DNA of 64,000 bases from Acutalibacteraceae bacterium. GTDB lineage: Bacteria; Bacillota; Clostridia; Oscillospirales; Acutalibacteraceae. Both the position numbers and the translations under genes were made by a program. Each line of letters starts with the position of its first letter. The first letter of the stretch is position 1. Where the stretch lies: assembly GCA_045648145.1 (NCBI GenBank), contig JAZRNK010000026.1, positions 9,625-73,624 of the forward strand. The letters run 5' to 3'. The notes beneath the pieces are model-generated. The model was not told where the DNA came from and searched no databases. It was given only the letters and a program-made list of their open reading frames with translations. Shown one piece after another: positions 5,135-62,464 of the stretch.

Positions 5135-5139
5135 ATATT

Positions 5140-5165
5140 CGGCAGACTTTTTAGTCTGCCGTTTT
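5140..5165 (+). terminator. terminator after yabR
   Basis: CGGCAGACT-tttt-AGTCTGCCG followed by TTTT. It overlaps the TTG start suggested in the ORF track for the next gene, which favours ATG 5179. Confidence 0.8.
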
Positions 5166-5178
5166 GTTTGGAGAAAAT

Positions 5179-6024: not shown

Positions 6025-6035
6025 CAGGTGAAAAG

Positions 6036-7154: not shown

Positions 7155-7169
7155 TAGGAGGCAATATTT

Positions 7170-7952: not shown

Positions 7953-7986
7953 AATTAACCCCTCTGCAGTAAAGCAGAGGGGTTTT
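7951..7986. terminator. bidirectional terminator between convergent SGNH hydrolase and pgm genes
   Basis: CCCCTCTGC-agtaaa-GCAGAGGGG flanked by an A-run and a T-run. Confidence 0.8.
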
Positions 7987-7988
7987 AA

Positions 7989-9704
7989 CTACTTATTCAT
8001 CATAATATCGCCAAAGGCTTTTAGCTTTTCACTAATAGCAATAGAATCTTGTTTTGTTTTACCTACAGCAGAAATATAAACCTTGATTTTAGGTTCTGTA
8101 CCTGACGGACGTACAATAAAAGAGCATCCGTTCTCCAATTTAAACTCAATAACATTTGATTTCGGCAAATCTATAGTGGCCACTAAACCGGTCACTAAAT
8201 CTTTATCCTCAGAAGTGTTATAGTTCAGCATTCTGACAACCTTAATATCATTGATGTGGACAGGCGGATTAGAAGATAAATCACTCATTATTGAACTCAT
8301 TTTCTTCATACCTTGCTGTCCTTCAAAGGTGTAGCTAGACTGCTTATTAGTATAAAATCCGTGTTCCTGCTCGATATCAGACAAAGCATCAAAAAGAGTT
8401 TTACCTTGTAATTTATAGTAACAAGCCATTTCGCAAATGAGCATTGAAGCAGTAACTGCGTCTTTATCTCTTACGAAAGTACCGCTAAGGTAACCGTAGC
8501 TTTCCTCAAAACCGAATATATAACGTTCTTCCTGGCCTTTTTCTTCTAATGCCAATATCTGCTCACCGATAAACTTAAAGCCTGTAAGAACATTTATAAG
8601 CTGACAACCGTATTTCTCTGCAATTTTATTGCAAAGCTCGGTTGTAACTATTGTTTTTACAGCTATAGCATTTTCGGGCATTTTATTAAGCTCAGTGCGG
8701 CGCTTTAAAATATAATCAAGTAAAAGTGCGCCAACCTGATTACCGGTCATAAGCTCGTAAATATCGTTTGTTTTAACTGCGATACCGACTCGGTCACAAT
8801 CAGGGTCTGTTGCAAGAAGAATGTCGGGCTTGATTTCATCTGCAAGCTTCAGTGCACATTCAAACGGCTGACTAAGCTCGGGGTTTGGATATGGAGCGGT
8901 AGGGAAGTTACCGTCAGGCAGTTCCTGCTCTTTGACAACCGTAACGTTTTTGGCGCCAATACGGTCTAAAATCGCGCGTACAGGCTTATTTCCTGTTCCA
9001 TGAAGCGGAGTATAAATAACCGAAAAATCGCTGTTACGGATAATATCGGGGGACAATGACTGCTTTTGAACATTATCAAGAAAGGCCTCGATTACAGAAT
9101 TGTCAATGTATTTGATTTTTCCGTTATTTATGCCTTCATCAAAGTCGATAGTTTTAATTCCTGTAAAGAAATCGGTCTTTTCAATATACGAGAACACAAG
9201 GTTACTTGCTTCCAAATTCAACTGACAACCGTCAGGACCATATGCTTTATAGCCGTTATATTTTGCAGGGTTATGGCTTGCGGTAATAACAACACCTGCG
9301 TCACATCCCAAATGTCTTACGGCAAAGGACAACATAGGGGTAGGCATAAGTTCATCATAAATATATGCAGTAATGCCGTTTGCTGCAAAAACAGAGGCTG
9401 CAGTTTTCGCAAAAAGTGTTGATTTTATACGGCTATCGTATGCTATAGCAATTTTACCGTTATCGGTCACACTGTTAACGTAATCGGCAATACCTTGCGA
9501 GGCACGACCAACGGTATAAACGTTCATACGGTTGGTACCTGCACCAATAACACCTCTTAAGCCGGCGGTACCAAACTCTAACTCTTTATAAAAACGGTCG
9601 CTTATGGCTTCCTCGTCATTTTCAACAGACAATAATTCAGGTATAAGGTCAGGGTCAGCGGTGGCTTTTTTTGACCATTCCAAATACAAATCAGCACAAT
9701 TCAT
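7989..9704 (-). CDS. pgcA: phosphoglucomutase/phosphomannomutase (PgcA-like)
   Basis: 571 aa with the active-site loop TASHNPAKYNGYK, the metal loop DPDCDR and GFEESYGY. Confidence 0.9.
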   Translation of the reverse strand: MNCADLYLEWSKKATADPDLIPELLSVENDEEAISDRFYKELEFGTAGLRGVIGAGTNRMNVYTVGRASQGIADYVNSVTDNGKIAIAYDSRIKSTLFAKTAASVFAANGITAYIYDELMPTPMLSFAVRHLGCDAGVVITASHNPAKYNGYKAYGPDGCQLNLEASNLVFSYIEKTDFFTGIKTIDFDEGINNGKIKYIDNSVIEAFLDNVQKQSLSPDIIRNSDFSVIYTPLHGTGNKPVRAILDRIGAKNVTVVKEQELPDGNFPTAPYPNPELSQPFECALKLADEIKPDILLATDPDCDRVGIAVKTNDIYELMTGNQVGALLLDYILKRRTELNKMPENAIAVKTIVTTELCNKIAEKYGCQLINVLTGFKFIGEQILALEEKGQEERYIFGFEESYGYLSGTFVRDKDAVTASMLICEMACYYKLQGKTLFDALSDIEQEHGFYTNKQSSYTFEGQQGMKKMSSIMSDLSSNPPVHINDIKVVRMLNYNTSEDKDLVTGLVATIDLPKSNVIEFKLENGCSFIVRPSGTEPKIKVYISAVGKTKQDSIAISEKLKAFGDIMMNK

Positions 9705-11712: not shown

Positions 11713-13146
11713 ATGAAAAACAGGTTGTTTAAAAAATTCTTCCTATCTACAACTGCTGCTATTGTTGTCAGTCTTGTTATTATAATGTCATTTTTAAGTG
11801 TTTTTGTGAGTTCGTATTTCGTTAACGAAAAAGAAAAACTGCTTATTAATAATTGCAAGACTATTACAAACGTTTTGTCTAACGAAACTGATAATGCTAC
11901 TAACTTTCACGTTAGTCTGAACGGTATCTTGAATGTTGTTTCAAACGCTATTTCAGGTGAGGTATATGTTTGTGATGAAACAGGCAGGGTTTTTATTTGC
12001 AGTTGTTCTGAATGGAAAAATGAGAAAAGCTGTGAGCATTCCAAAACACAACTTTCAAACACAATAATTGATAACGCTTCCGACGGCAAGTTTTTTGAAA
12101 TTGGCCATCTTGATGGTAGATTTAGGAATATTTACTATACTGCAGCAATGCCGTTTTTTACTGAAAGCAATGAAATTGCAGGGTATGTATTTATTTCATC
12201 TGCCGCATCACTCATTAAGGATATGTGGTCGGAATTATGGGACATTTATCTTATTTGTAATCTTGTTCCCATAACCTTAATGTTCATCTTTATCTATATA
12301 ATGACCAAGAAAATCACCAAGCCGTTGAACTTGATGTCTCAAGCAGCCATCAGTATGTCTAAGGGCGATTTTTCAAAGCGTATTCCTATAGCCGGTGATG
12401 ATGAAATTTCTGATTTAGCAAAAACCTTTAACAGTATGTCAAATTCATTATCTCAGCTTGAGTCAATGCGTCGAAGCTTTGTTGCTAACGTGTCGCATGA
12501 GTTAAGAACACCTATGACAACTATCGGCGGTTTTATAGACGGCATTTTAGACGGTACTATACCTAAAGACAAGCACGAGTATTATTTGAATATTGTATCG
12601 GCTGAAACAAAGCGCCTTTCACGGCTTGTTCAGTCTATGTTGAGCTTGGCAAGACTTGAATCGGGTGAGCAAAAGGTAAACTTAACAGAATTTGCCTTGA
12701 CAGACCTTATATGTGAGGTTTTAGTATCTCAAGAGCAAAGAATCACCGATAAAAACATTGATATTACAGGACTTGACGTGGGTAACGATATTAAAATCAC
12801 TGCCGACAGAGACCTGATATATCAAGCTGTATTTAACCTTGTTGATAATGCAATAAAATTCTCACCTGAAAGCAAAACAATTTCTTTTGATATTTCTAAA
12901 CAAGGCAATATAGTTTTGTTTAAAATTAAAAACGAGGGCAAAGGAATTAACCCTGAGGAATTACAGTATATATTTGACAGATTTTACAAAACCGATAAAG
13001 CCCGTTCGGCTAACAAGGACGGAACAGGATTAGGATTATATATAACTAAAACAATTATTGATATTCATAAAGGTAATATTTCTGTTAGCAGCAAACCCGA
13101 TGCTTATACTGAATTCATCGTTGAATTTCATCCAATAATTAATTAA
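11713..13146 (+). CDS. sensor histidine kinase (TM-sensor-TM-HAMP-HisKA-HATPase)
   Basis: H-box FVANVSHELRTPMT, N-box DNAIKF and G-box DGTGLGLYI. The gene starts 2 nt after the RR stop. Confidence 0.9.
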   Translation: MKNRLFKKFFLSTTAAIVVSLVIIMSFLSVFVSSYFVNEKEKLLINNCKTITNVLSNETDNATNFHVSLNGILNVVSNAISGEVYVCDETGRVFICSCSEWKNEKSCEHSKTQLSNTIIDNASDGKFFEIGHLDGRFRNIYYTAAMPFFTESNEIAGYVFISSAASLIKDMWSELWDIYLICNLVPITLMFIFIYIMTKKITKPLNLMSQAAISMSKGDFSKRIPIAGDDEISDLAKTFNSMSNSLSQLESMRRSFVANVSHELRTPMTTIGGFIDGILDGTIPKDKHEYYLNIVSAETKRLSRLVQSMLSLARLESGEQKVNLTEFALTDLICEVLVSQEQRITDKNIDITGLDVGNDIKITADRDLIYQAVFNLVDNAIKFSPESKTISFDISKQGNIVLFKIKNEGKGINPEELQYIFDRFYKTDKARSANKDGTGLGLYITKTIIDIHKGNISVSSKPDAYTEFIVEFHPIIN

Positions 13147-26067: not shown

Positions 26068-28026
26068 ATGTTTGAGTTTTTAAGAGTTACGAGTGCCGTT
26101 CCTAACGTTTCTGTTGCTAACGTTGATTATAACGTATCGCAGATTTGCGAAAAGATTGCAGAAGCTTCAGACGCACAGTCAAATATTGTTGTTTTCCCTG
26201 AGCTTGCGGTTACAGGGTATACCTGTGGCGACCTGTTTTTCCAAGATACACTTATCAATAGCTCAAATAAAGGTGTTGAGCAAATTATCGAAACAAGCAG
26301 TAAATATGCAATACCTGTCATTGTCGGCGCACCGATAAAAATTTTTGGTCAATTATATAACTGCGCTTTGGTTATTGCCTGCGGTAAGATTTGCGGCATT
26401 GTGCCTAAAACCTTTATTCCAAACCATAGCGAATTTTTTGAAAAACGTATTTTTTCTTCTGCCGAGGATTTAAAGTTAAGTGAAGTAAATATTACAGACA
26501 TAGGTATTTTAAAATACGGTCCATACAGTATTCCTATAGGTAACAATATTGTTTTCAACGTAAACAACAAGTATAAATTCGGTATCGAGGTCTGCGAAGA
26601 TTTGTGGACTGCTTTGCCACCGAGTACGTTTTTATCTCTTGCAGGCGCAGAGGTTATTTTTAACATTTCTGCAAGTAATGAGGTTGTTTCAAAACGTAAG
26701 TATAGGGAAGAACTTATAAAGCAACAATCTGCAAGAACTTTTTCTAACTATGTTTATACATCTGCCGGTAGCGGTGAGTCGACCTCTGATTTAATATTCT
26801 CAGGAAATACCATTATTGCTGAAAACGGTAAAATAACCGCCGAAAACGATAAAATAATCGATAATAATTATTGTTTATCGGCAGACTTTGATTTAGGCAA
26901 AATCAGAGCGGACCGATTAAAAACCAAGACGTTTAAGGATGCAAACAGAATCTACGGCGATTTTGTTGATGTTAGAACAGTCAATATCGTTGATAACAGT
27001 TTATCGACTTTTTCTAACGGCGCATTGCTTAATATATCCAAACATCCGTTTATACCAACCTGTACTTCAGACAGAATTACTGCCTGCAAAGAAATATTTG
27101 CAATGCAGGTAGCAGGCTTGAAGAAAAGAGTAGAAATCACCAACAGTAAGCTTGTTGTTGGTGTTTCGGGAGGTTTAGATTCCACTTTAGCATTACTTGT
27201 AGCGGTTAAGGTGATGAGCGAGCTTAACAGACCGCTTGAGGATGTCCACGGTATTACAATGCCATGCTTTGGCACATCAGGCAGAACATATAACAACTCG
27301 ATTATTTTAATGCAAACGCTTGGTGTAACAGCTAAGGAAATTAACATAAAAGACGCTTGTTTAAAGCATTTTGATGATATTGGCCATGATGCCGACATTC
27401 ATGACATAACCTACGAAAACAGTCAAGCAAGAGAAAGAACACAGGTTCTTATGGATTATGCAGGTAAAATCGGTGGTTTTGTTGTTGGTACCGGTGATTT
27501 GAGCGAGTTAGCTCTCGGTTGGTGCACCTACAACGGCGACCATATGAGTATGTATAGCGTTAACTGTGATATTCCTAAAACGCTGATAAAGTGGATTATT
27601 GATACTGTCAAAAATAAAGTTATTTTCCAAAACAGCGCTACTGTTTTAGAAGACATTATCAATACACCTATCAGTCCCGAATTACTTCCACCGGACGAAG
27701 CAGGGAAGATAGCACAGAAAACCGAAGATATTGTAGGGCCTTATGAGCTGCATGACTTCTTTATGTATTACATTCTGCGCTACGGCTTTGCACCAAGCAA
27801 AATTTATCATTTAGCTTTAACGGCTTTTGCAGATGTTTACAGTAAAGAAACCATATTAAAGTGGTTAAAAAATTTTTACCGAAGATTCTTTACACAACAG
27901 TTTAAACGCAACTGCGTTCCTGACGGTGTTAAGGTTGGCAGTATTGGTTTGTCACCACGAGGTGACTGGAAAATGCCGAGCGATGCTTCGTTTAAAATTT
28001 GGTTAGATGAGCTTGAAACTATATAA
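26068..28026 (+). CDS. nadE: glutamine-dependent NAD+ synthetase (CN-hydrolase plus NAD synthase domains)
   Basis: 652 aa with an N-terminal nitrilase-like domain (FPELAVTGY, EVCEDLW) and a C-terminal PP-loop (GVSGGLDST). Confidence 0.95.
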   Translation: MFEFLRVTSAVPNVSVANVDYNVSQICEKIAEASDAQSNIVVFPELAVTGYTCGDLFFQDTLINSSNKGVEQIIETSSKYAIPVIVGAPIKIFGQLYNCALVIACGKICGIVPKTFIPNHSEFFEKRIFSSAEDLKLSEVNITDIGILKYGPYSIPIGNNIVFNVNNKYKFGIEVCEDLWTALPPSTFLSLAGAEVIFNISASNEVVSKRKYREELIKQQSARTFSNYVYTSAGSGESTSDLIFSGNTIIAENGKITAENDKIIDNNYCLSADFDLGKIRADRLKTKTFKDANRIYGDFVDVRTVNIVDNSLSTFSNGALLNISKHPFIPTCTSDRITACKEIFAMQVAGLKKRVEITNSKLVVGVSGGLDSTLALLVAVKVMSELNRPLEDVHGITMPCFGTSGRTYNNSIILMQTLGVTAKEINIKDACLKHFDDIGHDADIHDITYENSQARERTQVLMDYAGKIGGFVVGTGDLSELALGWCTYNGDHMSMYSVNCDIPKTLIKWIIDTVKNKVIFQNSATVLEDIINTPISPELLPPDEAGKIAQKTEDIVGPYELHDFFMYYILRYGFAPSKIYHLALTAFADVYSKETILKWLKNFYRRFFTQQFKRNCVPDGVKVGSIGLSPRGDWKMPSDASFKIWLDELETI

Positions 28027-28031
28027 TAATT

Positions 28032-28072
28032 AAAAGATGCATTTACGACTTGAACGTATTTGCATCTTTTTT
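28032..28072 (+). terminator. terminator after nadE
   Basis: AAAAGATGCA...TGCATCTTTTTT with inner TACG/CGTA pairing. Confidence 0.8.
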
Positions 28073-28123
28073 AGTTATGGTGTTAGGGAAGGCACTGATT
28101 TTAGCCCTCTAAATTTTTGATAA

Positions 28124-28141
28124 AATTATACAAAATGAATA
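28124..28141 (+). repeat. left copy of 18-bp direct repeat (attL core)
   Basis: AATTATACAAAATGAATA is identical to 34437-34454. The upstream GATAA is also shared, apart from a 1-nt indel. Confidence 0.85.
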
Positions 28142-28315
28142 AAATTTTACTAATATTAAAAATGACAGGGCAGGCTCTAAATTATGAGCCAGCCCTTTTT
28201 CCTTGTCAACTTTTTTGCCCCCGCAAGGAAATCCGCTCGTGATACCGTTGCAGTCCGAAACACCGAGCGAGAGCAACGCTCGAAGGCTCGGAAAAGACGG
28301 CTTCTGTCAATGAAA

Positions 28316-28352
28316 TGTGCAGTTCACTATCCGCGTCACAGTGAACTGCACA
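28316..28352 (+). repeat. perfect 13-bp-stem hairpin (TGTGCAGTTCACT / AGTGAACTGCACA, 11-nt loop); candidate Rep nick site or replication origin
   Basis: Read directly from the sequence. It lies in a GC-richer, ORF-poor stretch (28150-28360) that holds two further hairpins, and is immediately followed by the first TTGGGTAA repeat. Confidence 0.5.
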
Positions 28353-28354
28353 AG

Positions 28355-28457
28355 TTGGGTAATTTTTAAAATAAAAGGCTCTGTTAAGCCATTCTTGACA
28401 AAAAACTTTTACCCACTAAAGTGAAAAAAGTTGGGTAATTGGGTAATTTTTGGGTAA
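28355..28457 (+). repeat. iteron-like TTGGGTAA repeats (4 direct copies plus 1 inverted TTACCCA)
   Basis: TTGGGTAA at 28355, 28431, 28439 and 28450; TTACCCA at 28409. The same TTACCC core recurs in two internal intergenic modules. Confidence 0.6.
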
Positions 28458-28465
28458 ATAAGCGT

Positions 28466-28490
28466 CCTATCGTAAAGGTGTTACGATAGG
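28466..28490 (+). repeat. perfect 10-bp inverted repeat CCTATCGTAA-aggtg-TTACGATAGG
   Basis: Read directly from the sequence. No adjacent T-run on either strand, so it is not a canonical terminator. Confidence 0.6.
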
Positions 28491-28492
28491 TA

Positions 28493-28605
28493 GCGGGGAA
28501 ATATAAAGGAACGAAGTTTTTTTAATTAAAATTCGTTTAGAAAATTTAGGTATTCCTAAATTTTTAGAATTTTTGTTAAAAAAACAAGTGGTTATATTTC
28601 CCCGC
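28493..28605 (+). repeat. long imperfect hairpin of about 113 nt (outer arms GCGGGGAAATATAA / TTATATTTCCCCGC, apex AAAATTTAGG-tatt-CCTAAATTTT); candidate packaging signal
   Basis: The outer 14-bp arms and the apical 10-bp arms are perfect and share one symmetry centre. The internal arms are partly complementary. Confidence 0.5.
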
Positions 28606-28621
28606 GTAAAGCGTAAGTATT

Positions 28622-28840
28622 TTATCTTTTTGGATATGGTAGGTCTGGTAAACCTAAAATATAGTCTGCTGATATTCTTAAATATAAGCAAATATTTTTT
28701 AAGTGTGTTATTGGTATTAGGTTTATTCCTTTTTCATATCTTGCATATTGTTGTTGTTTTATGTTTAGATATTCTGCCATTTGTTTTTGAGTTATATTTT
28801 GTGTTTCTCTTTCAAATTGTATTATTTCATTGTAGTACAT
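28622..28840 (-). CDS. XRE-family HTH repressor (prophage cI-like)
   Basis: 72 aa containing ITQKQMAEYLNIKQQQYARYEKGINLIPI. It is divergent from the rightward phage operon. Confidence 0.85.
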   Translation of the reverse strand: MYYNEIIQFERETQNITQKQMAEYLNIKQQQYARYEKGINLIPITHLKNICLYLRISADYILGLPDLPYPKR

Positions 28841-28861
28841 AAAATCACCTCAAAAAATTAA

Positions 28862-28939
28862 TACCATAATTTACAACAAATGTGTTGACAAATGAACACA
28901 AGTGTTGTAATATATATTTACAACAGTAGTGTTGTAAAT
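28862..28939. promoter_or_regulatory. divergent promoter/operator switch: TTTACAACA-N4-TGTTGTAAA palindromes overlapping P(right) TTGACA-17-TAATAT and P(left) TTGTCA-17-TATGGT
   Basis: O3 at 28916-28939 has perfect 10-bp arms. O1 at 28870-28891 has 2 mismatches and contains the -35. A degenerate O2 at 28890-28911 contains the -10. Confidence 0.65.
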
Positions 28940-28959
28940 TAATTTTTAGGAGCGATTTT

Positions 28960-29313
28960 ATGTTACATGAATTAAAATTATCTACTGAATTTTTTGATGA
29001 TGTTTCTAATTTTAAAAAATCTTTTGAAATTAGAAAAAACGACCGAAATTATAAAATAGGTGATATACTTGGTTTTAATGAGTATGACCTTGATAATTCT
29101 GTTTATACAGGTCGTTCTTGTTTTTGTTATGTTGAATATGTTTTTAATCATTCAGATTATGTTATTGATGATTATGTTATTTTAGGTATTCGTCCTTGTA
29201 GTGTTAATGCTTTAGGTTTAGAAGTTGATTTTGAGTCTACTATTTTGCATGATACTGATATTACTTATAATCCAAAACATATTTGGTGTAAAGGTGATTG
29301 CAATGAAATTTAA
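28960..29313 (+). CDS. ASCH/DUF3850-like domain protein
   Basis: The N-terminus HELKLSTEFFDDVSNFKKSFEIRKNDRNYKIGD resembles the DUF3850 signature (HELK...FE.RKNDR.....GD). Confidence 0.6.
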   Translation: MLHELKLSTEFFDDVSNFKKSFEIRKNDRNYKIGDILGFNEYDLDNSVYTGRSCFCYVEYVFNHSDYVIDDYVILGIRPCSVNALGLEVDFESTILHDTDITYNPKHIWCKGDCNEI

Positions 29314-29434
29314 ACGTATTACTGTAGATTTACACCCTATAATTATTGAAAAATTAGAAGATTATGCAAAATTAAATGATATTTCTTTTAATTCTGCTTT
29401 AAATTTTCTTTTATATAATTTGCTTGTTTTATAA
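29303..29434 (+). CDS. 43-aa ribbon-helix-helix-like protein
   Basis: MKFKRITVDLHPIIIEKLEDYAKLNDISFNSALNFLL shows a beta-alpha-alpha pattern. AAAGGTGA SD. This internal ATG of the 69-aa track ORF overlaps the previous gene's end. Confidence 0.5.
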   Translation: MKFKRITVDLHPIIIEKLEDYAKLNDISFNSALNFLLYNLLVL

Positions 29435-29446
29435 AGGTGAATAGAT

Positions 29447-30088
29447 ATGAGTAATGAAAATAGTACAATTAATAAACCCCGGTCACTTCATGTTAGTTCC
29501 CGGTGCCGTAAATTTTCTTGTATCACTTATTTATCTGAATTGCAATTAAAAACTGTGCTATGTAAACATCACGAACAAATTCGGTGTTATGCTTATGCTT
29601 TTCATGATAAGGACGCAAGGGAAGATGGTACACTTAAAGAACCTCATTTTCACATTGTTTTAGTTACATACAATACTTGCACTATTTCTGCTATACGTCG
29701 TTGGTTTTGTGGTTTTGTTGATAGTAATGGTGATATTACTACTACTGCACAAAAATGTACTGATGTATTCGAAATGTATGATTATTTAACGCATAGCACG
29801 TTTCAAGCAAGGGCGCAAGGAAAATATCAATATGATAAAAGTATTGTTGTAACGAACGATACCGAGTATTTTAAGGCTAATGTTGAAAGTGAATTCGATA
29901 GTATTACGTTATCTGCAGAAATGCTTTTGAATGGTGCTTCTGTTCGTGAGTGTGGTAGAAAATTTGGACGCGATTTTATACTGCATTATCCTGCAATCAA
30001 AAAGTATTTAACTGATGTGTTTTTACTTAATCAAAGAGCCGATATTAATAATATTAACGATTTAATTATTTTAGATTTATCAAAATAA
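29447..30088 (+). CDS. HUH-superfamily rolling-circle replication initiator (Rep)
   Basis: Motif 1 is FSCITY, motif 2 is PHFHIVLV (HUH), and motif 3 is FEMYDYLTH with the E-x3-Y spacing seen in pC194-type Reps. Confidence 0.75.
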   Translation: MSNENSTINKPRSLHVSSRCRKFSCITYLSELQLKTVLCKHHEQIRCYAYAFHDKDAREDGTLKEPHFHIVLVTYNTCTISAIRRWFCGFVDSNGDITTTAQKCTDVFEMYDYLTHSTFQARAQGKYQYDKSIVVTNDTEYFKANVESEFDSITLSAEMLLNGASVRECGRKFGRDFILHYPAIKKYLTDVFLLNQRADINNINDLIILDLSK

Positions 30089-30108
30089 ATTTTAAGGAGT
30101 TTTTAAAA

Positions 30109-30258
30109 ATGAAAACTGAAATTGTTCAAGGAATTAGCAAAAAAACAAATAGGGAATATGTTCGTTTAGATATTTATTTAACTGATACTTATGTAAAATC
30201 TGTTTTTTTAGATAGGGCAGAGGCTGAATTAATTAAAGTATCTCAAAATAACCTTTAA
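30109..30258 (+). CDS. 49-aa hypothetical protein in the gV (ssDNA-binding protein) position
   Basis: Hand-translated as MKTEIVQGISKKTNREYVRLDIYLTDTYVKSVFLDRAEAELIKVSQNNL. AAGGAG lies 8 nt upstream. It is too short to appear in the ORF track. Confidence 0.45.
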   Translation: MKTEIVQGISKKTNREYVRLDIYLTDTYVKSVFLDRAEAELIKVSQNNL

Positions 30259-30277
30259 TCTCTAAAGGAGTTTTCGT

Positions 30278-31825
30278 ATGTGGAAGAAGCTTATAATCAC
30301 AATTCCTCTCATAATATGTTTAATCGTTCCTACCTTGGTTATAAGCTCTTCTGCTGCGAGCTTAACTGTAGTTGACGATATGGTTGTTAATAATTTCAAA
30401 TCTCGTATTGGTTATGAAATTAATGATAATACTTATTGGTCACCTGATGAAAATACTTTAATGCGTGTTCATTATCCGGAACGTCGACAAATGCAATTTA
30501 TGTTGAATACTAATGACGATAGTATTTTAAACGGTAATACAACACGCATTTTTAGTTTTGAAATTAATCTTGCTATGTTTGTTATGACAAATCAACGTGT
30601 TGATTTTGAATTAACATATAGAGGTGAAGAGGGCTATTATATAGGTTTAGGTTCCGAAATATACTCTAAAAATACGTCTGCTGGTTTAGTATCTTCTTCG
30701 AATTTAATTAATTATGGCTCATGTATACTTAAGGATGATGGTAAAACATTAGAATTTCAAATTTTGAATGTTACATCTACTGATACTATTTATGTGTCTT
30801 TTGGCTTTCAACAAGTTTTTGATAGTCCTGCATTAATTTTTGATTGCAATTTTGTTCCTGGTATGACGTTTTTATCACAAGATAATCCAGATGAACATTT
30901 AATAACTACGTCAAGTTCTTTTTCTGGTCTTTTTTATTCTGACGATATAACTGGTTATTTTAATTTCCCCGGTACTTCTGGTAACGGTGTAGGGTCTATT
31001 CCTCGAAAATATGACCTTGTTCCTGAAATTAATGGTACTGGTATTATTTTTAGAGCTTTAGTTGATGGAGAAGTTACTGGTAAACAAAAAGTTGATTTTG
31101 CTACTGTTACTTTTAATCCTTATTGGGTTAGATATAAAGACTCACCATCTTTAAAATATAAAATTGATGATACAAGAGTTTATCGTGTTGGTTTTATCTT
31201 GCAGTTAGGTAATCAAGGGCAAATTTGTTATGCTGAATTTTTAAAAAATTTAAAGTTAAGTGCTACTACTTTTGAGGGCACATTTAACATTCCTGCTTCT
31301 AATCTTTGGTCAGAAGAAACTGCAGATGGTACTAAAAAATCGTTTGCATTGTTTGATTTTGATATACGAGGTAGTATTTTAAATAATGCTAAATGGACAT
31401 TTGAGTTTAATACAGATGGTATTACCTCTGTTAATAAATATAGTTATTTGAATTTTTATTTTGTTGGACCTTTTTTTATTATTGCTCGGTCGGTAGAATA
31501 TACTGAACAAATGAATGAGGCAGATTTTATATTAAATGCTGGTATAAATGTTGGTGTCGGTGATTTTGGCTCGTCTAATATACAAGTTTTGCAACAGTCT
31601 TTAGTTAATTTAGAGTCGAGTTATACTATATCAAGTGCTGATATTTCTAAATTAAATCAACATGCTACAAATCTTTTATCAAATGGTAATTTTAAATCTG
31701 CTTCAACTGTTATTACTGGTTTTATTGATAGATTTAGCGTTGAAAATAGTATTTATTGGGGTTTGATGTTGGCTTGTTTAACTTTAGGAATAGTATTTTA
31801 TTTTATAGGTCGTGGTAAAGGTTGA
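30278..31825 (+). CDS. 515-aa secreted, C-terminally membrane-anchored protein (pIII-like adsorption/minor coat architecture)
   Basis: N-terminal signal peptide (LVISSSAAS) and C-terminal TM plus basic tail (LMLACLTLGIVFYFIGRGKG). No recognisable homology. Confidence 0.55.
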   Translation: MWKKLIITIPLIICLIVPTLVISSSAASLTVVDDMVVNNFKSRIGYEINDNTYWSPDENTLMRVHYPERRQMQFMLNTNDDSILNGNTTRIFSFEINLAMFVMTNQRVDFELTYRGEEGYYIGLGSEIYSKNTSAGLVSSSNLINYGSCILKDDGKTLEFQILNVTSTDTIYVSFGFQQVFDSPALIFDCNFVPGMTFLSQDNPDEHLITTSSSFSGLFYSDDITGYFNFPGTSGNGVGSIPRKYDLVPEINGTGIIFRALVDGEVTGKQKVDFATVTFNPYWVRYKDSPSLKYKIDDTRVYRVGFILQLGNQGQICYAEFLKNLKLSATTFEGTFNIPASNLWSEETADGTKKSFALFDFDIRGSILNNAKWTFEFNTDGITSVNKYSYLNFYFVGPFFIIARSVEYTEQMNEADFILNAGINVGVGDFGSSNIQVLQQSLVNLESSYTISSADISKLNQHATNLLSNGNFKSASTVITGFIDRFSVENSIYWGLMLACLTLGIVFYFIGRGKG

Positions 31826-32055
31826 ATAAAATAATTGAATTTTTTGAAAGCTTTGCTGAAGGTGTAGATTCTATTGTTGATTTTGTAGTCACTTTATTTA
31901 CGTCTTTTGTTCGTTTTTTAACGTCATTACCTGCTTTTATTCAAATACTTAATAATACTTTATTTACAATACCATCTACATTAGTTATTTTTGTATCTTT
32001 ATCTATTACAATATCCATTATATTTTTAATAATTAATCGAGGTAGTTCAAAATGA
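31822..32055 (+). CDS. 77-aa two-TM protein
   Basis: The TTG start overlaps the upstream TGA (TTGA). It is strongly hydrophobic. Confidence 0.5.
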   Translation: MNKIIEFFESFAEGVDSIVDFVVTLFTSFVRFLTSLPAFIQILNNTLFTIPSTLVIFVSLSITISIIFLIINRGSSK

Positions 32056-32264
32056 TTGAGAAGTCAATAGATTTCTTTTTTAATACAATTAAATGGGTTT
32101 TCAATGATTTTTTACAAAGAATTAGAATTTTTGGTGTACCTTTAATTTATTATTTTTTAGTTTTAACTATTGTTGCTATTGTGTTTATGGGTCTTATTAA
32201 TTCTGCTAAAATATCTCGTTTACCGTTTTCACGTAAAAAGGGGAGAGGACCTAATAAAAAGTAA
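32052..32264 (+). CDS. 70-aa single-TM protein with basic C-terminus (coat-protein-like)
   Basis: ATGA overlap with the upstream ORF. TM segment LIYYFLVLTIVAIVFMGLI followed by SRKKGRGPNKK. Confidence 0.5.
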   Translation: MIEKSIDFFFNTIKWVFNDFLQRIRIFGVPLIYYFLVLTIVAIVFMGLINSAKISRLPFSRKKGRGPNKK

Positions 32265-32328
32265 GGTTTACCCTTTAATTAAGGTTTCCGAGCTTAATTA
32301 AGGTTTACCCAATTTGGAGTTATAATTT

Positions 32329-32829
32329 ATGAAAAAAATATTTTGTTTGTTAATTGTTGTTATAACGTTGTTTGTTTCATGTTGTTGTGTTTCAGCTGCT
32401 GAAATTTCACCTGGTAGTATTAATCAAGAGGCTTTAGATTATTTAACTGGTTGTGTCAAAAAACTTGAGCCTAACACTGATTATTTTTTATATCGTGTTA
32501 ATGATACAGACGCATGTTTAATTTATTCAAATGATTTATATTTTGACTCTACTGAAAATGTAGTAGGGGGTAGTAATGTAACAAAGATTTCTTATACATT
32601 TGATACTTTAAAGAATTGTTATGTTACTACTTTTGAAGATAATTTATCTTCATTTCAATTAAATTCTGTTATATATTCTGTTGCTTATTCTTCTTTAGGA
32701 CATTGGTCTACAGTTGAAGATAAGAACACATCAATTTTAACTTATATTTTATGGACTTTAGTTTTATTACTTTTATTATTTGTTGGTTTTAAATTTTTCC
32801 GCAATCGAAGGAGTTATATTAAGTTATGA
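32329..32829 (+). CDS. 166-aa secreted protein with C-terminal membrane anchor (minor coat-like)
   Basis: Signal peptide ending VSAAE and a C-terminal TM ILWTLVLLLLLFVGFKFF followed by a basic tail. Confidence 0.55.
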   Translation: MKKIFCLLIVVITLFVSCCCVSAAEISPGSINQEALDYLTGCVKKLEPNTDYFLYRVNDTDACLIYSNDLYFDSTENVVGGSNVTKISYTFDTLKNCYVTTFEDNLSSFQLNSVIYSVAYSSLGHWSTVEDKNTSILTYILWTLVLLLLLFVGFKFFRNRRSYIKL

Positions 32830-32990
32830 TAACATCTTTAATTGAATTTATAAACGGTGTTATAGATTATCCACCTCAATTTGAATTTCTTTTATATTTG
32901 GGCGCCACAGCTTTAATGCTGTTACTTATAGTATTATCTGTCGATTTTTTTGCTGGCATATTTTTTGCAATATTTCAACGTAAACGATAG
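32826..32990 (+). CDS. 54-aa single-TM protein
   Basis: Hand-translated as MITSLIEFINGVIDYPPQFEFLLYLGATALMLLLIVLSVDFFAGIFFAIFQRKR. ATGA overlap with the previous gene. Confidence 0.4.
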   Translation: MITSLIEFINGVIDYPPQFEFLLYLGATALMLLLIVLSVDFFAGIFFAIFQRKR

Positions 32991-33008
32991 AGGAAAGGAG
33001 AAAATATA

Positions 33009-33179
33009 ATGGAGAATATTACAAGCTTAGAAAATTTGACTACAGCGTTTACCTTTGTTACTACTTGTATGACTTCTATGGTCACAATTATTCTTGGTAA
33101 TCCTGTATTTCTTATTCCGGTTGGCATTTATGTTGCCGGTGCTGCTATTGGTCTTTGTGGCCGTCTTATTGGCAGATAA
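33009..33179 (+). CDS. 56-aa hydrophobic protein; best major-coat (pVIII-like) candidate
   Basis: Hand-translated as MENITSLENLTTAFTFVTTCMTSMVTIILGNPVFLIPVGIYVAGAAIGLCGRLIGR. It has the strongest SD in the element (AGGAAAGGAG) and is followed by a hairpin. Confidence 0.45.
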   Translation: MENITSLENLTTAFTFVTTCMTSMVTIILGNPVFLIPVGIYVAGAAIGLCGRLIGR

Positions 33180-33191
33180 TTTAACTTTTCT

Positions 33192-33226
33192 GCACCTTTG
33201 GCGAGCTTGCTCGCCAGGGTGCTTTT
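33192..33226 (+). terminator. hairpin plus T-run after the coat-candidate ORF (possible attenuator)
   Basis: GCACCTTTGGCGAG-cttg-CTCGCCAGGGTGC followed by TTTT. The stem is imperfect with one bulge. Confidence 0.5.
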
Positions 33227-33237
33227 AAGGTGATTTT

Positions 33238-33360
33238 ATGTTAAAGATTTTTATTGATTTTTTGGTTTATTTAATTACATATTATGAATTTTTAATTATT
33301 TTGGCTTTAATCGTTGCCTTATGTGTTATTTTACTTATTAATAAAATATTTAGTTTTTAG
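33238..33360 (+). CDS. 40-aa single-TM protein
   Basis: Hand-translated as MLKIFIDFLVYLITYYEFLIILALIVALCVILLINKIFSF. AAGGTGA SD. Confidence 0.35.
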   Translation: MLKIFIDFLVYLITYYEFLIILALIVALCVILLINKIFSF

Positions 33361-33371
33361 GAGTTTTAAAA

Positions 33372-33566
33372 ATGAAAGCTTTAATACCTTTGTTGTTAAT
33401 GATTGTTATGTGCTTGTTGGCTGGTAAGCCTGGATTAATTCTTTTGGCATATATTTTTTGTTTCTTTGTTTTTGGTATATGTATATTCTTTTTATTCAGA
33501 TATCTTTCGTCAAAGTTTCCAAAATTGCTTGAACTGTTTAAACGTCAAAATAAAGGTGATAAATAA
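33372..33566 (+). CDS. 64-aa two-TM protein, translationally coupled to the Zot-like gene
   Basis: TAATG stop/start overlap with the next gene. AGGAG SD upstream. Confidence 0.5.
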   Translation: MKALIPLLLMIVMCLLAGKPGLILLAYIFCFFVFGICIFFLFRYLSSKFPKLLELFKRQNKGDK

Positions 33567-34174
33567 TGGTTACAGGTTATTTTGGTCTTCCCGGTAGTGG
33601 TAAGACTACTTTTTTAACTATGTTAGCTCAAAAAGAGTTAAAACTCATAGCAAAAGGGAAGAGCAAGTATAAATACGTTTATACAAATTTTTATTGTCAA
33701 GGTTGTTATAAGTTTGAGTATGAAAATTTAGGTAGATTTTTATTTACTGATGCATTAATTTTGATTGACGAAATTACTCTTGAGGCTGATTCGCGTGACT
33801 TTAAACAGTTTTCTCGTGAAAAGAAATATTTTTTCTTAATGCATAGGCATTATAATTGTGATATTATTTATTTTAGTCAACATTATGATAACGTTGATAA
33901 AAAGATACGTGATATTACTTATGATTTATTTTTTGTTCGTGCATGTAGGTTTCAATGGTTGCCATTTTCTACGGCTACTCGTATATTCAGAACGTTGGAT
34001 ATATGTGAGCAGACACATGAAATAGTTAATGGTTATCGTTTTCCTAATATTTTTGATACTTTGTTTGGTAGCGTAAAGCAAATTTGTTTTAGACCACGTT
34101 GGTATAAATATTTTGATACTTATGAGGCTAATCGTAATTTATCGACGTTTTGTAATTTCTTATGGAATGAATAA
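33566..34174 (+). CDS. Zot/pI-family P-loop NTPase (filamentous-phage assembly ATPase), short form
   Basis: Walker A is at the extreme N-terminus (GYFGLPGSGKTT) and Walker B is ALILIDEIT. 202 aa with no TM segment. Confidence 0.7.
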   Translation: MVTGYFGLPGSGKTTFLTMLAQKELKLIAKGKSKYKYVYTNFYCQGCYKFEYENLGRFLFTDALILIDEITLEADSRDFKQFSREKKYFFLMHRHYNCDIIYFSQHYDNVDKKIRDITYDLFFVRACRFQWLPFSTATRIFRTLDICEQTHEIVNGYRFPNIFDTLFGSVKQICFRPRWYKYFDTYEANRNLSTFCNFLWNE

Positions 34175-34226
34175 TTAAGGTATCCGAACTTAACTAACGT
34201 TTACCCATTAATTGAGGTGTTATACT

Positions 34227-34451
34227 ATGACAACTAAAGATAGAATTATTTTGTATGTTTACAACAAAACAAATACTCTTGAAAAAGAAAAGGAAGAAAT
34301 GCGTAATACTTTAAGGTATAAGCCTATCGATAGTCTTGATATGTATGAGATTATGAGGGAAGATATACGTTTGCAATGTTGGAATGAATTTCTTGAAGAA
34401 CTTGTTGCTTTAGTAGTACATTGTAAAAACGATAACAATTATACAAAATGA
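34227..34451 (+). CDS. 74-aa hypothetical protein whose last six codons lie in the att repeat
   Basis: GAGGTG SD. The stop TGA at 34449-34451 is inside the 18-bp repeat. Confidence 0.45.
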   Translation: MTTKDRIILYVYNKTNTLEKEKEEMRNTLRYKPIDSLDMYEIMREDIRLQCWNEFLEELVALVVHCKNDNNYTK

Positions 34452-34466
34452 ATATTTTGTATAATT
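34437..34466 (+). repeat. right copy of the direct repeat, forming a perfect palindrome AATTATACAAAAT-gaat-ATTTTGTATAATT (recombinase core-site architecture)
   Basis: Read directly from the sequence. It can be read as 13-4-13 or 11-8-11. Confidence 0.85.
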
Positions 34467-34924
34467 TAGGGAGGGGCAAAAACCTAATGATTACGCTAAC
34501 AAGCGATTTTTACCTAATATTAGCCATTTAACAATATGTATTTAACTTACTATTAATTGTCATCCATTATTTATAAATACAGCTTAATTATCAACACATA
34601 ATTTTGTAATTCAAATTTTTAAACATAAAATTTATAATAACTATCATTGTTTTTGTCTCCTTTATATTTTTATAATGTTTTTTCGGTATTTAATTTGTTT
34701 TTCAAAAAATTTCATCTTACCAGTTTTTTTCAGTAATACCTTAGGTCATTTAAAAAATTTCTATTCGATAGGATTTTAGTCCGTAATTTGTATTTTACGA
34801 GAATTTATTGTATTAACAATAAATCACTTAATTTTTATACGTTTAGAAGCTTTATAGAATCATCAAAACAATATTACCTATTTTATAATTTGTAATTGTT
34901 TTTTTAACCAATATATATTATAAT

Positions 34925-34937
34925 AATTATACAAAAT
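34925..34937 (+). repeat. third, partial copy (AATTATACAAAAT) 44 bp upstream of the recombinase start
   Basis: It matches the left arm of the palindrome exactly. The adjacent right arm is degenerate (ATTTGATTTTTGT). Confidence 0.6.
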
Positions 34938-34980
34938 ATTTGATTTTTGTTTGTGAAACTGTTTCACGGAGGTGCGTTTT

Positions 34981-35988
34981 ATGAAACGTGAAGTTTTATT
35001 ATCAGTTTCTCCTGTATTGCGAGAGTTTTTAACTTATAGCGAAACCATTAAAGGAAAATCAGAAAAAACGGTTGAACAATACTACTTGGATTTAACGCTA
35101 TTCTTCAAATATTTAAAACTTGACAGAGGTTTGACTGACAGCTCTATCCCCTTTTCAGACATAAAAGTTGACGATGTAGGTGTTTCGCTTTTAGAAACGG
35201 TTACTATATCTGATTTATATTCCTTTTTAGTATACTGCAAAACCGAGCGTAACAACGGCGCTGCCGCCAGAGCGCGAAAGGTTTCGGCATTACGTGTGTT
35301 TTTTAAATACCTATGTAACACAACCCACGCCATAAAGGTTAATCCTGCATCTGAATTAGATGCACCAAAGCTAAAAAAGACGTTGCCAGTACACCTCAGT
35401 TTAGAGCAAAGTATTGATCTATTAAAATCTATCGACGGACCGCATAAGGAACGTGATTTTTGTATTATTACCTTATTTTTAAATTGCGGTATGCGATTAT
35501 CTGAACTTTGTTCCTTAAATTATACCGATATTAAATCTGACGGTTCGTTAAAAATAACCGGTAAAGGTAATAAAGAACGTATCGTTTATCTAAATGACGC
35601 ATGTATGTTGGCGGTTGAAAATTATATGAAGGTACGACCGACCGACGGTATTCCCGTAAAGGATAAAAATGCTTTATTTATAAGCGCTCACCGTAAGCGT
35701 ATCAGTAATAAAACCGTGCAGCACATTGTATATTCTATGCTTGATAAAGCAGGTCTTAGCGGCCAGGGCTTTTCGACACATAAGTTAAGACACACAGCAG
35801 CCACATTAATGTATCAGCTTGGCGGTGTTGATATTCGAGTTTTAAAGGATATTTTGGGTCACGAAAACCTCGGCACAACACAGATATATACCCACGTTGC
35901 AAATAAACAGATTGCCGATGCCTTTGACGCCAACCCACTTTCTCAATTCAAACAAAAACCTTCTAAAAATGAAGATGACGAAAATTAA
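34981..35988 (+). CDS. Xer-family tyrosine site-specific recombinase
   Basis: N-terminal SAM-like core-binding domain. Catalytic residues are present in GMRLSEL, GKGNKER, HKLRHTAAT and LGHENLGTTQIYTH. ATG 34981 follows GGAGG. Confidence 0.85.
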   Translation: MKREVLLSVSPVLREFLTYSETIKGKSEKTVEQYYLDLTLFFKYLKLDRGLTDSSIPFSDIKVDDVGVSLLETVTISDLYSFLVYCKTERNNGAAARARKVSALRVFFKYLCNTTHAIKVNPASELDAPKLKKTLPVHLSLEQSIDLLKSIDGPHKERDFCIITLFLNCGMRLSELCSLNYTDIKSDGSLKITGKGNKERIVYLNDACMLAVENYMKVRPTDGIPVKDKNALFISAHRKRISNKTVQHIVYSMLDKAGLSGQGFSTHKLRHTAATLMYQLGGVDIRVLKDILGHENLGTTQIYTHVANKQIADAFDANPLSQFKQKPSKNEDDEN

Positions 35989-36086
35989 CGGTAGGACATT
36001 TTGTCTTACCGTTTTTTTGTACAAACTATGTCAAATTTTAAATTAAATCATAGTATATAAAAGAAACAATGAACTGAGGAATAAAT

Positions 36087-36530
36087 ATGCCCTTTGATGC
36101 AAGAGAACTATTAGCAAGAATAATTCAATGTGAGGCCGGAGGCGAAGGAGAAATCGGTATGGCGGCGGTAGCTACCGTTGTTATGAACCGTGTTCACGTT
36201 GCCGGTGGCGAGTATTTAAGAACCGGTGGCGGTAACCTAAGAAACGTTATATTTCAAGAATACCAGTTTGACTGTGCAAGAACGCAAATTGGCGGTCAAT
36301 ACAACGCTCAAAACATATATAATATGTCACCCGAACCTATTAATTATCAAATAGCAGATTGGGCTTTAGGCGGTAATGTATTAGGCGCTGTCGGTGACTG
36401 CTTATGGTATTATAATCCTTTTTCTCCAAACTGCGAATACTATTTCCCACGAAACGGCTCAGGAGTTTATCACACAAGAATTAATCAGCATTGCTTTTAC
36501 AGACCTACATCTAAATACTGGGAAACCTAA
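36087..36530 (+). CDS. cwlJ: cell wall hydrolase, SleB/CwlJ (Hydrolase_2) family
   Basis: LLARIIQCEAGGEGEIGMAAVATVVMNRV is the family signature. 147 aa, like CwlJ. Confidence 0.8.
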   Translation: MPFDARELLARIIQCEAGGEGEIGMAAVATVVMNRVHVAGGEYLRTGGGNLRNVIFQEYQFDCARTQIGGQYNAQNIYNMSPEPINYQIADWALGGNVLGAVGDCLWYYNPFSPNCEYYFPRNGSGVYHTRINQHCFYRPTSKYWET

Positions 36531-61576: not shown

Positions 61577-62464
61577 TTATCGTGCTAAAGGATGGTATTT
61601 TTTATAGCTTTGAGCATATCTGTTACGCATAAGCTGAGCATAAATCTGTGTTGAGGAAACGTCAGAATGTCCCAAAATCTCCTGAATATCCTTCAAAGGT
61701 GCGCCGTTCTCAAGCAAATGAGCGGCAAAAGAATGACGAATCGTATGCGGAGTAATATCCTTTTTGATTTTTGCTTTATCAGCGTAATATTTGATGATCT
61801 TCCATAAGCCTTGTCTTGTCAAGGGTTGTCCATTCATATTCGTAAACAGCTCTTCAGTGTCATCATCTGCAACTAGCATACCGCGAACCTTACTGCAATA
61901 ATTAAGTACAGCCTTAATGGCTTCGGGGTACATAGGAATAATTCTTTCATTTTTTCCGCTATGTAAATGTAAAATGCCGACCTGCAAGTTTATATCTGAC
62001 ATTTTTACATTAATAATTTCGGAAACCTTAATACCGGTCGCATATAAAACCTCGAGCATAGCTTTATCGCGGCAGCCCTTCAAATCACTGCTGTCAGGTT
62101 GAGCTAAAAGTTGAGAAATTTCTTTAGCTGTTAAAATTTCAGGAAGCTTTTTATCAACCTTATTTAATTTAATGCCTATAGCGGGATTATTTTTAGCGGC
62201 ACCCACAGATACCAAAAAAGTAAAATAACATCTAAGTGATGCAGTAACACGTGTAGCCGTTGCATTGGATTTACCAGATTTTATTAAGGAATCAATATAT
62301 TTTACAATATCGTCCTGTTTTATAGATGATACGCTCTTAATTTTAATATCATCACAGTAAGAAGCAAATTGATTAACATCACGCAAATAAGACTCCAGTG
62401 TATTGCTGGAGCTTTTTTTGGTCTCTTTTAAATAGATTTCAAATTCTCTTACGAATGTTTTCAT
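61577..62464 (-). CDS. xerD: site-specific tyrosine recombinase XerD
   Basis: 295 aa with ATGIKVSE, HTIRHSFAAHLL and LGHSDVSSTQIYA. It is adjacent to spoIIM, as in Bacillus. Confidence 0.85.
   Translation of the reverse strand: MKTFVREFEIYLKETKKSSSNTLESYLRDVNQFASYCDDIKIKSVSSIKQDDIVKYIDSLIKSGKSNATATRVTASLRCYFTFLVSVGAAKNNPAIGIKLNKVDKKLPEILTAKEISQLLAQPDSSDLKGCRDKAMLEVLYATGIKVSEIINVKMSDINLQVGILHLHSGKNERIIPMYPEAIKAVLNYCSKVRGMLVADDDTEELFTNMNGQPLTRQGLWKIIKYYADKAKIKKDITPHTIRHSFAAHLLENGAPLKDIQEILGHSDVSSTQIYAQLMRNRYAQSYKKYHPLAR

Follow-up and report, generated by a model that had tools for sequence, protein, structure and literature searches.

A stretch of 64,000 nucleotides from the genome of an Acutalibacteraceae bacterium (contig JAZRNK010000026.1; the whole stretch is called the window here) holds a phage-like element, a palindromic site at its right end and, about 0.5 kb downstream of that site, the gene for a 335-amino-acid (aa) tyrosine recombinase of the Xer family (Table 1). 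The element (28142-34436) is bounded by an 18-bp direct repeat, AATTATACAAAATGAATA, at 28124-28141 and 34437-34454. Both the identity of the repeats and the distance from site to gene had been reported in a preliminary description of this DNA and are confirmed here. The right copy of the repeat runs on into TTTTGTATAATT, and 34437-34466 is a perfect 30-bp palindrome, the only intact copy of this site in the window. Its 13-nt arm occurs four times in exact form, at 28124, 34437 and 34925 on the plus strand and at 34454 on the minus strand; with up to one mismatch there are six matches in the window against 0.9 expected, a number reached in none of 100 shuffles. The layout is that of a dif site, with two inverted 11-bp arms around a centre of 6 to 8 bp in a total of about 28 to 30 bp. 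The preliminary description had divided the palindrome as 13-4-13; its perfection holds, while relatives show that 12-6-12 (or 11-6-11 in the manner of dif) is the division to use.

The left junction (attL) has one perfect arm. Its other side is derived from the phage, and the earlier statement that the phage partner is only half palindromic stands: AAATTTTACTAAT contains no proper second arm, and the degenerate arm-like sequence TTTTACTAAT is 3 bp out of place, giving a spacer of 9 bp. A further copy of the arm precedes the recombinase gene, as had been noted, at a spacing of 43 nt rather than 44, and the adjacent GTGAAAC palindrome has a single T as its spacer rather than TG. This palindrome is followed by a GGAGG ribosome-binding site.

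Conservation of the site and signals of the terminus

A scan with one genome per species returned 80 loci that carry an orthologue of the 335-aa gene (loci fetched from relatives and phages were numbered L001 to L162 in this analysis). The sequence ATTATACAAAA-N6-TTTTGTATAAT is present upstream of the orthologue in 51 of the 80 species, and within 200 bp of it in 40 of those. One more species (L076) has a covarying variant of the site, which brings the count to at least 52, and the usual distance to the gene is 40 to 200 bp. Phage genes are absent from nearly all site-bearing loci, which shows that the predicted "empty site" exists and that the gene does not travel with the phage. The expectation of a single palindromic site directly upstream of the orthologue in phage-free relatives was thus borne out.

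An alignment of 52 sequences shows hardly any variation in the arms, unlike in the central 6 bp, and makes 12-6-12 the natural parse. Paired changes on both arms occur at 5 of the 12 positions (16 cells), a count that none of 500 shuffles reaches and that is biased in that the sites were partly selected for symmetry. The variant sites are not artefacts of the search, since they were found at the expected position before the gene; covarying arm pairs include ATTGCGCAAAA/TTTTGCGCAAT, CTTGCACAAAA/TTTTGTGCAAG, and AACTTCGCAAAA/TTTTGCGAAGTT. Canonical XerC/XerD sites have two different arms, and the arms here are identical and covary. This argues for symmetry that is kept by selection, with one protein species reading both arms.

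The recombinase itself is encoded by a conserved chromosomal gene of the host. The best NCBIfam matches of the 335-aa protein are the XerC, XerD, and archaeal XerA models, all under their cut-offs (187 bits against 220 for XerA); the score against the XerS model NF003462 (139.4 bits, cut-off 267) indicates that it is not XerS. The nearest solved structures are those of Escherichia coli XerD (1e-31) and archaeal XerA (1e-29), and the match to Helicobacter pylori XerH (5JJV, E = 3.8e-13) is far below these, so close kinship with XerH is not seen. Residues R172, K195/K198, H267, R270, H294, and Y303 are invariant in 16 orthologues, as predicted for a catalytically competent tyrosine recombinase. 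Among thousands of homologues the best 120 are 64% to 88% identical and come mostly from metagenome genomes of Clostridia, Oscillospiraceae, and Ruminococcaceae. Orthologues are 52% to 77% identical across the Oscillospirales, where they carry the NCBI name XerC. Close relatives keep the downstream neighbours (Hydrolase_2, RecN-like, ArgR, and NAD kinase). The gene is therefore not part of the element, a point on which the preliminary description had staked its interpretation: it is conserved in the chromosome with its synteny, and phage genes are absent at most loci.

Several signals of the replication terminus coincide at the site. Cumulative GC skew in the window rises to a peak at 35-36 kb and then declines, and long open reading frames (ORFs) lie nearly all on the plus strand up to 37100 and nearly all on the minus strand beyond. 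Where the flanks of a locus are usable, skew is in nearly every case positive over the 8 kb left of the site and negative over the 8 kb right of it. The hexamer AGGGGA changes strand at the site, with all seven copies in the window on the expected side: plus strand only to the left (1339, 13153, and 32239) and minus strand only to the right (35147, 40738, 46685, and 47269). No 7-mer is more strand-biased than AGGGGAG in 0.9 Mb pooled around the sites and read as leading strands, where it has 108 leading and 0 lagging copies. These are spread over 61 locus arms and lie mostly inside genes; Shine-Dalgarno-like words are biased only about 2:1 towards the leading strand. At loci where the gene lies off the skew switch the counts of AGGGGAG are 0:13, in the direction that the skew predicts, and in four further, independently obtained loci its polarity flips at the intact site and not at the gene. 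Sequences that orient the translocase FtsK (KOPS) are established in E. coli and Lactococcus lactis (PMC3384302). AGGGGAG looks like such a sequence in its behaviour, and may be read by FtsK. The suggested position of the site at the terminus is thus supported by skew, gene strand, and a KOPS-like motif, all of which switch there. No Bacillus- or E. coli-type dif was found elsewhere within the window.

The same word also marks one flank of the site. AGGG(G/A)AG starts two bases after one of the arms, and the side on which it stands tracks the orientation of the centre: with sites oriented by their flank, each fixed position of T-N-A-A-T-R is matched in 38 to 41 of 42 sites. The motif faces the gene in 21 species and faces away from it in 21, so it is not simply the ribosome-binding site of the gene. 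That identification of the G-rich flank was rejected on the ground that half of the species have the motif on the side away from the gene. The copy that abuts the site points away from it; we speculate that it positions FtsK-gamma beside one arm.

The prophage and recurrent insertions at the site

The 6.3-kb insert encodes, in order, a helix-turn-helix (HTH) protein, a DUF3850 protein, a Rep_OBD initiator, a 515-aa protein, small hydrophobic proteins, and a Zot/pI ATPase. Scans against Pfam and PHROGs that took in every ORF of at least 110 aa between the repeats found no integrase, serine-recombinase, or transposase domain in the ORFs scanned, in agreement with the earlier description of an element without a recombinase. 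Its genes fit those by which Inoviridae and Tubulavirales are recognized: pI/Zot, a rolling-circle replication (RCR) initiator, a run of small hydrophobic coat-like proteins, a length of 5 to 8 kb, and transcription mostly in one direction. The Zot protein has 774 homologues in the protein collection and is 33% to 48% identical to Zot of listed circular Inoviridae genomes from animal faeces. The intergenic region 28142-28420, folded as single-stranded DNA (ssDNA), reaches -51.5 kcal/mol (z = -6.3), and none of 200 shuffles is as stable; such a structured region after attL fits an inovirus origin or packaging region. With the relationship of its Zot to Inoviridae, its gene content, and this structured region, the element is, as far as genes alone can identify it, an inovirus-type (filamentous) prophage.

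Individual genes also have counterparts in related phages. The HTH gene is transcribed divergently from the remaining phage genes, and homologues of this putative repressor are present at the equivalent position in related prophages. The 515-aa protein has no family match in the Pfam and PHROGs scans; its position and topology suggest a putative adsorption or minor coat protein. Homologues of the 77-aa protein occur in L072, L081, and gut inoviruses, and a homologue of the 166-aa protein in the L006 prophage. The 56-aa protein has counterparts among the small ORFs of L006, L072, L081, and free gut inoviruses (43% to 73% identity), and a terminator-like hairpin (33196-33219) lies just 3' of its ORF. 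This is where the major coat gene usually stands, and the ORF is its putative equivalent. An Rfam search over 27900-36100 returned nothing credible, and a promoter scan found no more sites than in shuffled sequence.

Table 1 Features of the prophage, the site, and the recombinase genes in the window
Position	Strand	Feature	Supporting match
28124..28141		attL core: left arm AATTATACAAAA and 6-bp centre TGAATA, same as the left part of the intact site
28142..28154		Right side of attL, phage-derived AAATTTTACTAAT; arm missing at the canonical spacing
28142..28420	+	Phage intergenic stretch, G+C-rich hairpins; putative origin/packaging signal
28622..28840	-	Cro/C1-type HTH protein, putative phage repressor	HTH_3 E = 2.5e-12; PHROG transcriptional regulator/repressor
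28960..29313	+	DUF3850 protein, ASCH-like	RNA-binding according to PHROGs
29447..30088	+	Rolling-circle replication initiator, Rep_OBD	PF01719 E = 3e-14
30278..31825	+	515-aa protein; N-terminal signal-like and C-terminal hydrophobic segments (from translation)
31822..32264	+	Pair of small hydrophobic proteins (77 aa, 70 aa); putative minor coat/assembly
32329..32829	+	166-aa protein; signal-like N-terminus, C-terminal hydrophobic segment
33009..33179	+	56-aa hydrophobic protein, basic C-terminus; putative major coat protein
33566..34174	+	Zot/pI-type morphogenesis ATPase, inovirus hallmark	PF05707 E = 1.6e-6; PHROG Zot-like, M13 protein I
34212..34451	+	79-aa phage ORF; last codons and TGA stop inside arm/centre of attP/attR
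34437..34466		Intact site, attR, candidate chromosomal dif: AATTATACAAAA-TGAATA-TTTTGTATAATT
34468..34476	+	One-sided G-rich flank AGGGAGGGG, local form of the AGGG(G/A)AG found beside the site in relatives
34477..34924		A+T-rich non-coding filler between site and recombinase gene
34925..34937	+	Solitary third arm copy, ends 43 nt before the ATG, directly after TATAAT
34953..34967		Palindrome GTGAAAC-T-GTTTCAC, directly 5' of the recombinase ribosome-binding site
34981..35988	+	335-aa Xer-family tyrosine recombinase, conserved chromosomal gene	Phage_integrase, SAM_1
61577..62464	-	Near-canonical XerD in an operon with spoIIM (62490-63131); possible partner recombinase

RCR phages or plasmid-like elements occupy the site in at least eight other loci (L006, L072, L075, L026, L156/157, L158/159, L160/161, and L162). 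Related inoviruses are found there in six of these (L006, L072, L156/157, L158/159, L160/161, and L162), and the element in L075 is of the RepB type. L156 to L162 came from a separate search seeded with Zot, in which each prophage proved to have an orthologue of the 335-aa gene (54% to 75% identical) downstream of it. The initiators of the elements that share this site belong to three families, Rep_OBD, Rep_1, and REP_ORF2-G2P. In the window attP mimics dif in arm and centre, with 18 bp identical, and elsewhere the element likewise shares one arm and the centre with the site variant of its own host: TGAATA in the window, TAAATG in L158 and L081, TAAATA in L160, and TATTGA in L072. The intact site lies on either side of the element, depending on the locus. 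At three hybrid junctions (window attL, L026 5070, and L156 6169) the second arm is displaced by 3 bp, and these junctions should for that reason be poor substrates; the displaced arms of L026 and L156 are themselves perfect or near-perfect. The L026 element (5070-9490), bounded by the intact site at one end and by a copy whose spacer is 9 bp long (arm-TGAATA-GAG-arm) at the other, is a 4.4-kb plasmid-like element that encodes a Rep_1 (pUB110-type) initiator and a 172-aa truncated integrase fragment. Four related prophages have one AGGGGAG each on the coding strand, directed towards the intact site (window 32239, L156 10753, L158 11075, and L160 11118). This orientation is the permissive one for their replichore, and may be due to chance, given the strong G-skew of the phages.

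We also looked for free forms of these phages. The IMG/VR contig L081 is 96% to 99% identical to the L158/159 prophage and has a joined attP junction, and thus looks like an unintegrated form. On both sides of the L159 prophage stands an imperfect direct repeat of about 47 bp (6700-6760 and 11810-11870), which extends well beyond the 17-bp core of arm and centre; this suggests a remnant of an earlier tandem copy. The 17-mer ATTATACAAAATGAATA has matches at 64 loci in viral contigs, mostly chance matches in large viruses; the relevant ones are L145, L096, and L101, and none of them is decisive. The closest free gut inoviruses, Dulem virus 71 and Bajarodino virus 55, encode an integrase of their own. 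The arm scan covered three others, Bajarodino viruses 78, 38, and 57, which are integrase-less (Zot 39% to 42% identical) and do not have this arm; none of the five is informative about attP. An attP folded from ssDNA, as in CTXphi, was considered and rejected: the sole inverted arm-like sequence (34249), at 189 nt from the core, contains two mismatches and takes no part in the predicted fold.

Integrative mobile elements exploiting Xer (IMEXs) are an established class (PMC5357621), and the element in the window has their arrangement, with insertion at a candidate dif of which an intact copy is kept. We conclude with good confidence that 34437-34466 is the chromosomal dif of an Oscillospirales (Acutalibacteraceae-like) host and that the prophage is an integrase-less IMEX which borrows the host Xer machinery. 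The same interpretation, with CTXphi as its precedent, had been put forward in the preliminary description and was largely right, in view of the missing recombinase, the intact site, the terminus signals, and the conservation. In the mechanism that we propose, attP would consist of one perfect arm, an identical 6-bp centre, and a displaced, degenerate second arm. The host recombinase would bind and cleave the site, pairing double-stranded attP with dif, and would exchange strands inside the shared 18 bp, presumably in a set order and under the control of FtsK. The phage would thereby be inserted; the junction nearer the gene would again have an intact dif with its G-rich flank, and the other would be left with a crippled hybrid site. 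Dimer resolution would be preserved by the regenerated dif, and the prophage would be stable as a result of the disabled hybrid site.

Two other explanations of the insertion were weighed. The 335-aa gene could be the integrase of a mobile element or phage and the palindrome a mere attachment site. The gene does lie directly beside the prophage in every case, its product misses the equivalog cut-offs of the Xer models, and a direct repeat "next to an integrase" was taken as a canonical att in a survey of inoviruses (PMC6813254). However, the gene is outside the repeats, host synteny is kept on its far side, and dozens of species have the compact site and gene without phage genes. The site moreover coincides with the switch in skew and polar motif, and unrelated replicons (Rep_OBD, Rep_1, and REP_ORF2-G2P) use one and the same site, all of which makes a phage integrase very improbable. 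Still less credible, by a small step, is nicking and joining at the palindrome by the HUH rolling-circle Rep of the phage, with the neighbouring recombinase as a bystander. The element does encode an RCR Rep, and the site can form a hairpin in ssDNA. The shared sequence, however, has the layout of a tyrosine-recombinase core and is matched to the centre variant of each host, three unrelated Rep families target the one site, and the site exists and is conserved where the phage is absent.

Some observations count against an IMEX at dif. The terminus was located from local views only (the 64-kb window and the flanks of related loci). In about 20 of the 80 species the orthologue lies off the skew switch and has no adjacent site, so that linkage is common and not universal. 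The 335-aa protein scores well under the cut-offs of both the XerC model TIGR02224 (214.5 against 335.15 bits) and the XerD model TIGR02225 (194.7 against 329.6 bits). A metagenome scan for a pattern that would match the empty site, attP, attL, or attR of the window species returned only four unrelated chance matches, and the pattern had no match in viral contigs; neither a phage-free copy of this species nor a circular copy of the window phage was found. The circularity of L081 is ambiguous, since the flanking repeat of about 47 bp in L159 means that its terminal repeat may be one that flanks a prophage. Finally, in at least 12 species the gene has xerD as its neighbour in convergent orientation, which weakens the version with a single recombinase.

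One or two recombinases

A second recombinase gene in the window, described earlier as a canonical XerD at 61577-62464, is indeed present; it lies on the minus strand and is better called near-canonical (309 bits against a cut-off of 329.6), with intact catalytic motifs. The 335-aa protein is 25% identical to it. In a tentative alternative to a single recombinase, which we judge possible but the less probable course, the 335-aa protein would be a divergent XerC paired with this XerD, one on each identical arm, with centre and flank deciding their placement. The intact XerD in the window is consistent with such a pair, as are the NCBI name XerC of the orthologues and the 12 loci in which xerD is 1 to 3 kb from the site, in most of them convergent with the 335-aa gene and in L001 and L162 on the far side of the site. 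In addition, either arm agrees with the XerD arm of the Bacillus and E. coli reference dif at 8 of 11 positions. Identical, covarying arms would nevertheless be unexpected if they were read by two proteins that are 25% identical, and in L158/159 spoIIM adjoins a 342-aa gene, with no xerD at the usual place. The linkage of spoIIM and xerD, moreover, looks like old Firmicute synteny unrelated to dif, to judge from B. subtilis. Action of the 335-aa protein alone is slightly favoured on these sequence comparisons, because of the symmetry of the arms and the tight linkage of gene and site.

In a relative at 75% identity (L162 4540-14082, GCA_054266535.1) the inovirus has the 335-aa gene on one side and the xerD-spoIIM operon on the other, so that both recombinase genes flank the site; they are about 26 kb apart in the window. 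From this difference a rearrangement or an insertion near the terminus is implied. The sequence TTATGT(A/T/C)AAC, which matches the canonical Firmicute XerD-binding arm, forms a cluster of six copies in the window at 63244-63461, in the intergenic stretch that precedes the spoIIM-xerD operon, and similar clusters occur at the corresponding xerD position in L001, L162, L019, L026, L070, and L046. The cluster is possibly an autoregulatory site of XerD, or an unrelated operator.

Further arm copies and spacers surround the 335-aa gene. Extra copies of the arm lie beside it in L001, L002, L003, L019, L075, and L162. Many species have A+T-rich, non-alignable fillers with one to four gene-adjacent arm copies (for example L001 5090-5190 and L162 5600-5700), and in L001 and L162 a pair of arms is only 2 bp apart. 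Such gene-proximal arms and fillers may have been left by past insertions, or may serve the recombinase for binding. In a relative at 88% identity (L151), whose contig begins within the site so that presence or absence of the phage is not readable there, the filler is similar in length and A+T-richness and ends in the same half-site and palindrome. The window filler (34477-34924) could not be aligned with those of more distant species, and the idea that the fillers are one shared mobile element was rejected on this ground. The solitary arm at 34925-34937 is possibly an autoregulatory half-site or a relic of an ancestral gene-proximal site. In compact loci the arm itself supplies the TATAAT just before the ribosome-binding site; together with the place of the solitary arm directly after TATAAT, this makes (putative) autoregulation by the gene product plausible. 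The GTGAAAC-T-GTTTCAC palindrome is present in the window, L151, L026, L034, L036, L037, and L073, where the site is displaced 0.4 to 0.7 kb from the gene. It also occurs in L032, where no site was found, and is absent from compact loci.

As a broader proposal, which we put forward tentatively and hold to be possible rather than probable, Oscillospirales may use an undescribed dif/Xer module. It would comprise a perfectly symmetric 12-6-12 dif with coevolving arms, a divergent 335-aa Xer, encoded in most cases right beside the site and probably acting alone, and a single FtsK-type polar motif, AGGGGAG, in one flank, on a side tied to the orientation of the centre. Docking of FtsK-gamma may then set which strand pair is exchanged first, and filamentous phages and small RCR elements would exploit the module as IMEXs.

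Implications and relation to known Xer systems

To our knowledge, IMEXs have been demonstrated almost entirely in Proteobacteria. The strategy appears here in filamentous phages of strictly anaerobic gut Firmicutes and recurs across species. The phage thereby points to a dif/Xer module of a large, medically relevant clade that is seemingly undescribed, and so to a probable gap in Xer biology. The literature searched, the coverage of which is incomplete, yielded no account of a dif/Xer system for Oscillospirales or Ruminococcaceae. Dif sites of Firmicutes have been predicted from a Bacillus seed by Kono et al. (PMC3025954). Coevolving, identical arms with a one-sided polar motif make it testable how a symmetric site, possibly served by a single recombinase, imposes strand order and FtsK control. 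There are also consequences for annotation. The 335-aa gene is named XerC despite scoring under the cut-off of the XerC model, and inovirus prophages beside it may be scored as having an integrase of their own, so that the criterion of PMC6813254 could mislabel such cases.

Several other Xer systems share parts of this arrangement. Like XerS/difSL of streptococci and lactococci (PMC1914069, PMC2965235), the system is found in a Firmicute, its gene lies beside dif at the terminus, the protein is longer than XerC and XerD, and the genome has a separate XerD-like gene. DifSL, however, is a 31-bp asymmetric site, whereas the site here is a symmetric 12-6-12 and the protein is not XerS. XerH/difH of Helicobacter and Campylobacter (PMC3325230, PMC5241119) likewise combines a largely palindromic, gene-linked dif with a single recombinase, but belongs to a different phylum, and the sequence similarity is distant. 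The XerL/dif system of Legionellales was found through integrated LME-1 (PMC9765430) and is similar in that the att site of an element reveals an overlooked, palindromic dif at the terminus which is served by a divergent recombinase. It differs in that XerL is not encoded beside dif, LME-1 is not an inovirus, and the system has been validated experimentally. Archaeal XerA/dif has near-palindromic 11-6-11 arms and a single recombinase, and XerA is among the best matches of the 335-aa protein. The host here is bacterial, however, the protein is under the XerA cut-off, and the site is apparently tied to an FtsK-type polar motif.

The closest parallel to the prophage itself is with the IMEX phages of Vibrio cholerae (CTXphi, VGJphi, and TLCphi), which use the host XerCD at dif. 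In both cases an integrase-less filamentous phage has an attP that mimics dif, with one arm degenerate as in TLCphi and CTXphi, a functional dif is kept on one side, and the locus gathers further elements and relics. Unlike in Vibrio, the recombinase here is not a canonical XerC or XerD, and there is no sign of an attP folded from ssDNA. The host is instead an anaerobe of Gram-positive type with a perfectly palindromic dif whose arms covary, and the phage copies either arm of it, as a comparison of the window with L072 indicates.

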